From: Psilocybe cubensis
Taxonomy: Eukaryota
Length of the DNA stretch: 64,000 nucleotides
Assembly: GCA_017499595.2 (NCBI GenBank)
Contig: CM039002.1
Location: 3,534,001 to 3,598,000, forward strand
Direction of reading: 5' to 3'
Both the position numbers and the translations under genes were made by a program. The notes under the pieces are model-generated. The model worked only from the letters and a program-made list of their open reading frames with translations. It made no database searches and was not told where the DNA came from. Below, piece by piece: positions 18,757-21,672 of this stretch. Position 1 is the first letter of the stretch. Every line of letters starts with the position of its first letter.

Positions 18757-19588
18757 CTAAAGAGCTGAGCATTTGAAGTCTGCTTTGTCCTCCTTATTGT
18801 CAGCCTCGTTCCCAGTGTGATCGCAAGTATCGCCTGCCATAGCCTTCGGGCCTAGCGCATTTACGCCGGCGTGGTAGCACGTTCCAGGACCACCATTGTT
18901 ATTCCCAGAGATGTATTTGATACAGATATGGTGCCCTGCATCTGTTTTGACTACCTGAGCTCTATTTGTAGGGTTCTTTGTGTGGTTCAGGATGGCCTCT
19001 GTGCAGTGGTTCTCGATCTGCTGGAGAGTGTGTTTGCCGGGACGATCGTCCCAAAGCGATTTATTGGCCTATAATCACGAGTATCGGGTCAGTTAAAATG
19101 TAAGCTGTACTACATGAATTGACAACTTACGTCTGGAACATGACACAGGTTAGTCTTGGTATTGCACTGTCCAGTCGCTTTGGGGTTGGCTTTGCAATAC
19201 GCGGTAAGGGTGTGACGACCTTTGTCGGGAGCCTCATCCTTGCCCTTTGCATCCTTTCCGTGTATAACATGGCTCTTCATCTCTTGGAACTTGTCGTTAG
19301 CGGCTTTGCGCTTCTCTTCGGCCGTGGGCTAACATTGCGATTAATAAATACCCACATATATGACTGGAAATAAATTACCGCGACAGGACGATCTTTGGGG
19401 CCCTTGTCACCGCCACCACGGCGAAGAATGTCATCACGGCGTTCCCTTCAAATTAAAGGCGTTAGCATACAACTCGAGAGAGGGGAGGCAATAAAATCTT
19501 ACATGGATGTATCTGCAGCTGCAGGGATGTACAAGGCGTTCGCAGACGCCGCAATGAGGAGGAGCGAAAAAACGATTGAAGACTTCAT
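18757..19588 (-). CDS. Secreted 8-Cys protein with bacterial EndoU-like nuclease motifs, copy 1 (3 introns, ~220 aa)
   Basis: Spliced: MKSSIVFSLLLIAASANALYIPAAADTSMERRDDILRRGGGDKGPKDRPVAPTAEEKRKAANDKFQEMKSHVIHGKDAKGKDEAPDKGRHTLTAYCKANPKATGQCNTKTNLCHVPDANKSLWDDRPGKHTLQQIENHCTEAILNHTKNPTNRAQVVKTDAGHHICIKYISGNNNGGPGTCYHAGVNALGPKAMAGDTCDHTGNEADNKEDKADFKCSAL*. The gene model is firm; the EndoU call comes from motif recognition only. Confidence 0.8.
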
Positions 19589-20295
19589 TGTAAGTGTTTA
19601 TCGACCAGCGAAAACGAAGATGCTTGTGAAGTTGAGTGGTATCGAACCTGCGATGAGGATTTGAATCGACGTTCTTCTCCCTTAAAAACATTATGGGGTC
19701 CGAGAGTATCGCGACATATAGTGATTGTTCTCACCGTTGAGAGCATGAGGAACACATACGACGAAAAGCGCAAAAACGATTGGCCTTGAACGTTTCAAGG
19801 ATCCGCAAAGTGTCCTGTAGCCGGACCTCTTCGTTGACGTTCCAAATTTAACTTCAATGATTCACACTCTCCGCAATTAATATGTCGAAAAGCATTTTAG
19901 ATGCCTCCGATTCCGGAAGTGATGGGATGACCAAAAAGGTCCATCAAGCAGTGCTCTTAGCTACGTATGGTAACTACACAATGGGTATGTGCGCCCATCA
20001 AGGCTAGTTCTTTCTTGAGGAACTTGAAGAAACAAGGATGTTAGATTCCGCACTCGTTCTTGTCAGTCAAAAACACCGGAACAGCATCGGGTGACCTTTT
20101 CATCCATGAGGAGCGCGGTAACGCAGGCACAGGCTACCGCTGATATCATTGATACATCAATTGCTATATACACAGCGTACGTGATTCAAATTGACCTTAA
20201 AAAAGAGAAAAGGAGAAACACTTCATACCATATTCATTCCTCCGACGATCAACCATACCAATCGCCAATCGCCAATACACTCTAGAGGACACACC

Positions 20296-21672
20296 ATGCC
20301 TACCACCCAACTATCTGCCAGCTTCATCGAGCACAACTCTGTGCCTACGCATTACGTCCATCCGTATATCTTCACGCACGAAAGCGACGAAACAGGCGAC
20401 GTCTACGTTTGGTCTTCAAATGATAACTCGCTCTATGCTACCCTGGAAGAACCTATGGCCGATCCGAAGGCTCACCACTTGTTACCCAATGATTATCTTC
20501 TCAGTCTAACCACCGCTACGGAGAACCACGCACTTAGCGAAATACTCATCCACAAACTTCCTGATGGCGTACTAGTCGACCGGATGACACTTGGCCCGCT
20601 CGACTCCTCAGGATCTGACGGAAACTCCAAGTTTCTCTGTGTATATGAGGGAAATATTGCTGTTTGGAGAAATAAAGACGCCAGCGACGGGAGTGGATTC
20701 GTCGAGATCTACACCTTGTCAGCCGACGGAAAACTGGTTTTATCAGAAACTCTCCTTCCTCGTCAAGATTGCCCAAGCTTCGAAAGCGACGCGTTGCCGG
20801 GGAAATACTTCCCACCATCCGCACTCTTCACGATAAACAACGAAATCATCACAGTCAACGCATCCAAGCGTTCATTCCCGAACTGTATCGACGTGATCCG
20901 CTTCACCTCAAGCACCAATGCCTCCCGACAAAAATCCCTCACGTTCGATTTCTTAACCACAGAACTTCCAACCCCCAACGCCGATATGCAAAGCAGCCTC
21001 TCTGGACACGTATACCTCACCACCCACAAGGCGGTGATTCTAGCACATAACGAATTCCCATTCGAAAGCTCCGGAACAAATCCAGTCACTGCCGTCCGAT
21101 GTCTCGACGTAGACACTCTCGAGCTTAAATGGTCTACATCTCTGCCGTGCGATACGTGCAAGCTGCGGTACATTCCCCAGCTCGACGTAATAGTCTCCCT
21201 AGGGAATGCTATCACCTCTCTCAAAGATGAGGATGGCACACTCCTAGGTTCAAAGTCCCATCTATCCATCGTTGCTCTTGATCCGGCTACAGGGGACATC
21301 CGTGCGTCTCATATACTTGGTGGACCCGAGAGACCATGTGGTAATGTGCACTGGGAGGAGATGGCGGGTGTCTGCTGCGACGTGACGCCTGCGGGTGATA
21401 GCATAACTGTTATACACGGAGACGGCCAGATGGCTGTTATCCCTGTGAAAGAGCTCCTCGGCCTCGCACCTGCAGAGTTTCTCAAGAATGATAAAAAACT
21501 CAAAACGATTGCGGCCCCTGATATCGAACCGTCTACACCATCAACCGACGAGCAGCGGAAGAATCTGAAAAACGGGCGCTGGAGATGGGTGATGAAGGGG
21601 TTTGTGGGAGATAACACTGTTTTCGTGCATCTGATGAGGCATAAGGGCTTCGTGGCGCTTACCTTAGAGTAA
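20296..21672 (+). CDS. Intronless ~458-aa beta-rich (propeller-like) protein without signal peptide, divergent partner of EndoU-like copy 1
   Basis: Long ORF from ATG 20296 (MPTTQLSASF...) with recurring short beta-strand patterns (DVYVWS, ILIHKLPDG, VRCLDVDTLELKW, IVALDPATG). Close paralog at 37424-38797. Confidence 0.85.
   Translation: MPTTQLSASFIEHNSVPTHYVHPYIFTHESDETGDVYVWSSNDNSLYATLEEPMADPKAHHLLPNDYLLSLTTATENHALSEILIHKLPDGVLVDRMTLGPLDSSGSDGNSKFLCVYEGNIAVWRNKDASDGSGFVEIYTLSADGKLVLSETLLPRQDCPSFESDALPGKYFPPSALFTINNEIITVNASKRSFPNCIDVIRFTSSTNASRQKSLTFDFLTTELPTPNADMQSSLSGHVYLTTHKAVILAHNEFPFESSGTNPVTAVRCLDVDTLELKWSTSLPCDTCKLRYIPQLDVIVSLGNAITSLKDEDGTLLGSKSHLSIVALDPATGDIRASHILGGPERPCGNVHWEEMAGVCCDVTPAGDSITVIHGDGQMAVIPVKELLGLAPAEFLKNDKKLKTIAAPDIEPSTPSTDEQRKNLKNGRWRWVMKGFVGDNTVFVHLMRHKGFVALTLE

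Follow-up and report, generated by a model that had tools for sequence, protein, structure and literature searches.

In this study, we analysed a 64,000-nucleotide (nt) stretch of the Psilocybe cubensis genome (assembly GCA_017499595.2, contig CM039002.1, positions 3,534,001 to 3,598,000 of the forward strand), hereafter called the window, whose own numbering is used throughout, and found in it two copies of a head-to-head gene pair. In module 1, a four-exon gene on the minus strand for an EndoU-like, toxin-like protein (T1) faces an intronless open reading frame (ORF) of 458 amino acids (aa) on the plus strand, its partner P1; in module 2, the toxin-like gene T3 (minus strand, ATG at 36740) faces the intronless partner P2 (plus strand, ATG at 37424). 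The genes of the pair are real conserved neighbours from uncharacterised families. A retained neighbourhood, perhaps with co-regulation, explains the pair best, with a probability that we put at roughly 0.55.

The divergent pairs that had originally been predicted, with spacings of 708 bp in module 1 (20296 minus 19588) and 684 bp in module 2 (37424 minus 36740) from ATG to ATG, were reproduced in their coordinates, ORFs and spliced gene models. Self-BLAST of the window revealed three copies of the toxin-like gene and two of the partner. The T1 region (18701–19737) is 82.3% identical to the T2 region (28216–29264), the 3′ part of T1 (18741–19332) is 72.5% identical to 35779–36378 in T3, whose region extends over 35779–36808, and P1 (20314–21674) is 88.8% identical to P2 (37442–38799). 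Because the BLAST E value is 0, the similarity of the modules reflects paralogy rather than chance. The T1 and T3 proteins share 71% aa identity. A tblastn search of the window with the partner returned the P1 and P2 loci and no further one (the other three of five matches had E > 6), and T2 is therefore without a partner. The claim that arrangement and spacing are kept despite diverged intergenic DNA was borne out as well, since identity between the two modules in windows of 100 columns is 0.40–0.63 outside the partner ORF and 0.81–0.99 inside it.

A full HMMER scan of 1.84 billion representative proteins assigned 27 representative clusters to the toxin-like family at E ≤ 1e-3, two of them being the P. 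cubensis copies themselves. Eight of the ten clusters examined are named, all from Agaricomycetes (Phlegmacium, Cyclocybe [two], Somion, Cerrena, Gymnopilus, Mycena and Hohenbuehelia), and the other two are metagenome proteins. The closest homologue outside P. cubensis is P0005 (KAF8803405.1) of Phlegmacium glaucopus (E = 9e-34, 43% identity). Its accession is followed directly, on the same 489,639-bp contig, by that of the partner homologue P0032 (KAF8803406.1; 54% identity to the partner), and the two are therefore neighbouring annotated genes. Given that toxin and partner homologues adjoin in P. glaucopus, the pair is older than the local duplication. In the tree of the toxin family, T1, T2, T3 and P0005 form one clade with a Shimodaira–Hasegawa-like approximate likelihood ratio test (SH-aLRT) support of 99 and a long stem branch of 0.9. 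Among other fungi, the neighbourhood was found in P. glaucopus only: in Gymnopilus junonius the partner homologue (P0002, 51% identity) lies on a 112,493-bp contig, whereas the only toxin homologue detected, P0010, which belongs to another subclade than T1–T3 and P0005, lies on a 285,158-bp contig, and the same partner protein searches found no partner homologue in the remaining named toxin-bearing species. Among the eight named clusters from outside P. cubensis, an adjacent partner in the source species was found for P0005 only. A closer Gymnopilus toxin copy may be unannotated or hidden within a cluster.

The synonymous divergence (dS; ranges are over three methods) is 0.95–1.19 for T1–T3, 0.35–0.52 for T1–T2 and 0.30–0.35 for P1–P2. 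The ratio of nonsynonymous to synonymous divergence (omega) is 0.09–0.28 in all pairs, and judged from these coding sequences all five genes are under purifying selection. The history of the duplicates was not a simple one-step one, because toxin and partner should show equal dS after just one duplication of the block. Similarity between the partners starts 18 nt past the ATG and stops at the stop codon, their dS per sixth of the ORF lies between 0.11 and 0.68, and the longest identical run, 104 nt, was reached by 2 of 5000 permutations. The simplest account of these patterns is gene conversion that was limited to the still-similar coding region and made the P1 and P2 ORFs partly uniform. We rejected a recent block duplication combined with conversion of T1 from T2, which predicts an alignable spacer at a dS of about 0.33; no such spacer was seen. 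As a separate observation, of the 40 variant letters listed from other runs at 20314–21140, 24 are the P2 letter, although P1 and P2 differ there at only 65 of 827 sites; alleles that arose by conversion in other strains, wrongly placed contigs of the paralogue or chimeric contigs may account for these P2-like letters.

In the reading that we prefer, the locus contains an ancestral pair of neighbouring genes of an agaric genome. One gene encodes a secreted protein that has a signal-like N-terminus, a pro-region with a terminal dibasic RR and a mature domain in which about 165 aa include eight cysteines. The other encodes a cytosolic protein of an orphan family, about 458 aa long, for which structure modelling predicts a beta-propeller. 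The pair would have been duplicated as a block long ago in this lineage, given the toxin dS of about 1 and the randomised intergenic DNA, the partner ORFs would later have been partly homogenised through gene conversion, and the toxin gene alone would have been duplicated again, more recently, giving T2. Descent, through duplication of the block and microsynteny that was retained, would be the main reason why the head-to-head layout persists, perhaps together with shared regulation, and the partner would not be the cognate antidote of the toxin-like protein. Passive co-duplication of neighbours had been named as an alternative in the original prediction; descent is indeed favoured, but the adjacency predates the duplication within this genome.

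Several points weigh against a neighbourhood retained mainly by descent. Both module copies stayed intact over a dS of about 1, and the spacing differs by no more than 24 bp in spite of the randomised sequence of the spacer. The partner family was found in three species only and stands next to the same toxin subclade in two of them, and co-retention of two patchily distributed genes would also be expected of a functional module. Retained synteny is moreover assumed, its basis in Phlegmacium and Gymnopilus being accession order and contigs only. Finally, the EndoU link of the toxin-like protein lies below every standard threshold (HH probability 5–9%, no Pfam family and no Foldseek match at E ≤ 0.001).

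The original prediction took the partner for a cytoplasmic inhibitor, chaperone or sensor and the pair for a candidate toxin-immunity module. A secreted EndoU-like ribonuclease (RNase) would then kill competitors, possibly including kin after uptake, and a cytosolic propeller would bind and block whatever reached the cytosol of the producer itself, in the manner in which CdiI blocks CdiA-CT in bacteria. We consider this quite unlikely. The pair is adjacent at two of the three toxin copies in the window and in Phlegmacium, the partner is non-secreted and has a narrow and patchy distribution, the partner-linked toxins form one clade on its long stem (0.9), and residues of catalytic type are retained in T1–T3, all of which would fit such a module. 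However, toxin and partner have not co-diversified, because the dS of T1–T3 is three times that of P1–P2: the partners are homogenised (0.30–0.35) while the toxins stand far apart (about 1.0–1.2, 71% aa identity), the opposite of what cognate co-diversification would give. T2 is intact without a partner, the Gymnopilus partner and the sole detected toxin homologue of that species, of the other subclade, are on separate contigs, and no partner homologue was found for the remaining toxin-bearing species. The partner matches no known immunity family in Pfam, including SUKH, SuFu and Imm28, which are the immunity families listed for Tox-EndoU in a survey of toxin systems (Zhang et al., 2012; PMC3482391), and according to that survey beta-propellers, the fold class predicted for the partner, had not been found among immunity proteins. 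A signal peptide and a pro-region would already give self-protection, and no conserved promoter element common to the modules was found. Immunity is kept at low weight because its tested predictions came out neutral or negative, and the discordant dS, the partnerless T2, the partnerless relatives and the separate Gymnopilus contigs speak against the inhibitor claim.

The boldest form of this idea is a eukaryotic counterpart of polymorphic toxin systems, that is, a mobile and patchily inherited agaric cassette of a secreted, EndoU-derived RNase directed against competitors and a cytosolic propeller that neutralises toxin in the producer's cytosol, and we rate it as very unlikely. If true, the partner would add a new class to the immunity proteins, the pair would be the first nuclease toxin–antidote gene pair in mushrooms, and gene conversion between the partners would maintain a broadly protective antidote while the toxins diversify.

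A further possibility is that the two genes form a co-regulated defence pair without physical interaction, in which both act as effectors or helpers in one response, for example as a secreted RNase and a cytoplasmic propeller lectin or sensor, and share a divergent promoter. Cytoplasmic propeller lectins are known as fungal defence proteins. The divergent orientation and the kept spacing agree with this, and contigs of run X1, whose kind is guessed to be RNA, hold both a spliced T1 junction and the partner ORF; such contigs cannot, however, reveal expression level or co-regulation, and the partner has neither a lectin family nor any other family in Pfam. Intergenic 9–12-mers shared by the two modules are about as frequent as in shuffled sequence, and shared 8-mers show only a slight excess (16, where shuffles give 7.9; 8 of 300 shuffles reach 16). 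Beyond the first 70 bp or so in front of the toxin ATG, neither self-BLAST nor k-mer comparison found an intergenic element common to the modules. The bidirectional promoter that had been proposed is therefore not shown to be conserved, and we regard the co-regulated pair as rather improbable. The stretch of about 70 bp itself (19589–19659 against 36741–36808) is about 80% identical, though the synonymous sites of T1 and T3 are almost saturated; a conserved 5′ untranslated region or core promoter element may lie there.

All three toxin-like genes are intact. The three introns of T1 are bounded by GT and AG, its stop lies at 18757, and the spliced protein (220 aa) is identical to the public protein P0035. 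Intron 3 as predicted is matched by a contig of run X1 that joins 19067 to 19130 with CT and AC ends. The contigs of X1 and of a second run, X2, likewise only guessed to be RNA, leave 19247–20214 and most of T1 uncovered, X2 having none on T1; such gaps in cover carry no weight as evidence. The T1 protein begins with a hydrophobic, signal-like segment (MKSSIVFSLLLIAASANA), downstream of which come dibasic RR sites and then a cysteine-rich domain with the residues H71, G88-R-H90, K120-S121 and T180-C181; eight cysteines of this domain are conserved within the T1 subclade. The T2 protein (219 aa) is identical to the public protein P0003. For T3, the public model P0004 (208 aa) uses an internal ATG in another frame as its start, and the signal-like N-terminus is missing from it; a five-exon model with a 26-nt micro-exon (36586–36561) regains this N-terminus, giving 233 aa, and gains a small extra cysteine loop that aligns with the Phlegmacium homologue.

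Across the toxin-like family the mean column identity is 18%. H71, C139 and C166 are invariant, G88, H90, C106, K120, D125, C181, G185 and C199 are near-invariant, and positions 121 and 180 hold S or T; the consensus reads HIFxGE..SGRH..KTVWDDRxGxYT..ICV..GSCFPxGI. As judged by the searches made, the family is uncharacterised and present in neither Pfam nor PDB. hmmscan gave no significant Pfam family for two T1 exon translations, three full proteins or 28 aligned family members, and neither EndoU family (PF14436 EndoU_bacteria, PF09412 XendoU) was listed for any toxin query at E ≤ 1–10; matches to CP12, NIP_1 and RNAse_A_bac (E 0.06–0.25) missed the cut-off and were discarded. Sequence and profile searches of PDB with the toxin returned chance-level matches and no EndoU chain, and a protein language-model search (ESM Atlas) gave no usable match. 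Scanning metagenomes with the toxin-clade alignment gave 465 pattern matches, 0 of which were confirmed. In the literature searched, none of the six locus tags is mentioned and, judging by titles and abstract openings, no such EndoU family is described in basidiomycetes.

The link to EndoU was examined by profile comparison. PF14436 domains were taken from bacterial genomes (a match at E ≤ 1e-3 in 18 of 1203 sampled and in 0 of 5 in another set), and eight near-full-length domains made up the reference alignment. With hhalign, the fungal core scored 22.0 against these eight domains (P = 0.0074); a second run gave P = 0.0037 and a probability of 9%, and the HH probability of the comparison was 5–9% overall. 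None of 300 column-shuffled templates reached 22.0 (mean 10.1, maximum 18.6), and reversed controls scored 15.2 and 15.6. The confident part of the alignment is the HIFxGE..GxH stretch; under a permissive setting it extends over K[ST]..W and then [ST]x[FY]P, so that the motifs H, GxH, K[ST] and [ST]x[FY]P are aligned in order with the bacterial domains. The AlphaFold model of the toxin, with a predicted local distance difference test score (pLDDT) of 86, consists of a helix (54–74) plus three strands followed by a helix (132–148) plus four strands. In the survey, Tox-EndoU is defined by a pattern of H, H, [SNT] and [SNT], has a topology of two BECR units of which the first is without strand 4, and has a phyletic list that omits fungi (Zhang et al., 2012; PMC3482391); the two helix-plus-beta-meander units of the model, of three and four strands, would correspond to the topology given there. 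Foldseek searches of PDB with the model yielded 0 matches at E ≤ 0.001 (best E 0.33) and no EndoU among the rows listed. Against BFVD the best E was 0.12, and the three highest template-modelling (TM) scores among the 50 rows listed (0.28–0.30, the others being ≤ 0.16) belong to coronavirus replicase 1ab fragments (E 0.12, 0.23 and 1.5), which may include the EndoU domain nsp15.

The EndoU-like label given at the outset is therefore weakly supported. The profile P values (0.0037–0.0074) and the ordered motifs speak for it, but no Pfam EndoU match and no Foldseek match at E ≤ 0.001 was obtained; from sequence comparison it is reasonable as a remote-homology hypothesis, with membership not established. 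Because H71, H90 and K120 are invariant or near-invariant with S/T at 121 and 180, we infer that the toxin-like protein is most probably a metal-independent RNase with a remote relationship to the EndoU domains of bacteria. It is unlikely, in our view, that the protein is instead a cysteine-rich secreted effector or structural protein whose H/H/K likeness to EndoU arose by chance, a question orthogonal to the other three readings. Such a chance likeness is in keeping with the want of a significant Pfam family for any toxin query (28 family members at E ≤ 1), with a PDB profile search that returned nothing relevant, with the best Foldseek E of 0.33 in PDB and with the low HH probability. It sits poorly with the conservation of H, H and K and of the S/T positions in so divergent a family, with four motifs in the same order as in PF14436 and a score above 300 of 300 shuffles, and with the replicase fragments as the three best TM-scores among the BFVD rows listed.

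The partner had been described as non-secreted and beta-rich, and both properties stand, the second on a low-confidence model: P1 has no hydrophobic N-terminus, and the model, built from three sequences with a pLDDT of 49, is all-beta and matches propellers, with at least 500 Foldseek matches at E ≤ 0.001 and, at the listed top, 7–8-bladed forms (E about 1e-8, TM 0.4–0.57). No Pfam family was found in P1, P2 or the Gymnopilus homologue, no repeat family was detected with Pfam, and PDB sequences gave no match. The nearest protein-language-model cluster is BamB/PQQ_2-like (score 0.90, 155 of 256 features), a weak lead. A word-indexed search of 5.8 billion proteins, with a single sequence and then a profile, recovered just the paralogue and the two proteins from Gymnopilus and Phlegmacium; in metagenomes, the partner alignment gave 326 pattern matches and 0 confirmed ones. 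The public model of P1, P0033 (513 aa), carries a 55-aa N-terminal extension in the region 20106–20295, which begins with an ATG at 20106 and includes an intron, and the Gymnopilus and Phlegmacium homologues begin near the ATG at 20296, without this extension. Contigs of X1 and X2 span 20221–21739, across P1. At 21739–21793, just past the P1 stop, contigs of both runs omit 53 nt with CT and AC ends, as for an intron of minus-strand type, and the contigs with this gap also cover 21062–21739, which suggests either a merged contig or a convergent or antisense transcript that overlaps P1 at its 3′ end.

Compared with bacterial Tox-EndoU (PF14436), the toxin family shows the same order of the motifs HIFxGE, GxH, K/[ST]..W and [ST]x[FY]P, two helix-plus-sheet units are predicted for the fungal protein as in bacterial EndoU toxins, and both are extracellular with a small non-secreted gene adjoining. 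The fungal protein differs in having no significant sequence or fold match to bacterial EndoU, in its 6–8 cysteines, in a longer insert that separates the second His from the Lys, and in being stand-alone and secreted, whereas the bacterial domain is the C-terminal tip of a large delivery protein. Its neighbour is divergent and a predicted 458-aa propeller, not SUKH, SuFu or Imm28, whereas the bacterial immunity gene lies downstream in an operon. Secreted fungal RNases and ribotoxins (RNase T1/U2, alpha-sarcin) are likewise small, secreted, disulfide-bonded and of metal-independent RNase type (predicted in the present case), and they protect their producers through secretion and processing and are not known to rely on a paired antidote. 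The toxin-like family has no sequence match to these RNases; its His/His/Lys pattern and duplicated unit are EndoU-like and not T1-like, and the searches made found it in Agaricomycetes only. RNase T1/U2 and alpha-sarcin are placed in the same BECR fold assemblage in the survey (PMC3482391). Among beta-propellers (WD40-, PQQ- and lactonase-like), the partner model matches 7–8-bladed forms, but it differs from known propellers in having no Pfam repeat family, a low model confidence and homologues found in just two further species.

Fungi repeatedly use secreted RNases as weapons and effectors, and by the searches made neither Pfam nor PDB contains this Agaricomycete family. If the EndoU link is real, a bacterial toxin fold extends to mushroom secretomes. 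The conserved adjacency to an orphan propeller bears on the question of whether a fungus has dedicated antidotes against the nucleases that it secretes, and the locus is a clean example of discordant paralogue ages through gene conversion limited to the coding region. The features of the two modules and of the lone toxin-like gene are collected in Table 1.

Table 1. Toxin-like genes, partner genes and the spacers between them, in window numbering
Feature	Position	Strand	Exons or structure	Product or remarks
Toxin-like copy 1 (T1)	18757..19588	−	19588–19503, 19445–19379, 19328–19131, 19068–18757	220 aa
Intergenic region 1	19589..20295			707 bp; diverged; resemblance to module 2 confined to 70 bp by the T1 ATG
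Partner copy 1 (P1)	20296..21672	+	intronless	458 aa; without Pfam family; predicted all-beta, propeller-like fold
Toxin-like copy 2 (T2)	28272..29113	−	29113–29028, 28970–28904, 28840–28643, 28580–28272	219 aa; intact; no partner
Toxin-like copy 3 (T3)	35792..36740	−	36740–36655, 36586–36561, 36502–36426, 36374–36177, 36106–35792	233 aa
Intergenic region 2	36741..37423			683 bp; diverged
Partner copy 2 (P2)	37424..38797	+	intronless ORF	457 aa; identical to public protein P0001

The surrounding window holds several other features. The partner had been called the only long intronless gene outside transposable elements, which is not clearly so because an uninterrupted 528-aa open frame with PH_20/PH domains lies at 42932–44521 (minus strand), likewise outside transposable elements. 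On the left, a multi-exon GH78 alpha-L-rhamnosidase gene occupies 5550–9372 (plus strand; Ig_Rha78A_N, Bac_rhamnosid_N and Bac_rhamnosid6H), and its six-hairpin part has bacterial relatives at 32–44% identity (19 loci). Three long successive frames follow at 9627–15224 (plus strand) with Exo_endo_phos/Exo_endo_phos_2, RVT_1 and RNase_H, making up a retroelement like a long interspersed nuclear element, about 3.5 kb from module 1. Between T2 and T3, a 253-bp unit is repeated three times in perfect tandem at 30723–31483 (100% identical). An inverted repeat at 31826–33197 and 33343–34717, with arms of about 1.37 kb that are 96.4% identical and 145 bp between them, may be what is left of a transposon or may have arisen by a recent inverted duplication. 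Self-BLAST also revealed several further dispersed and inverted repeats that fill the window's right half, among them 39667–41168 against 49822–51341 and 51802–54047 against 55608–58999 (75–97% identity), so that this region is repeat-rich.

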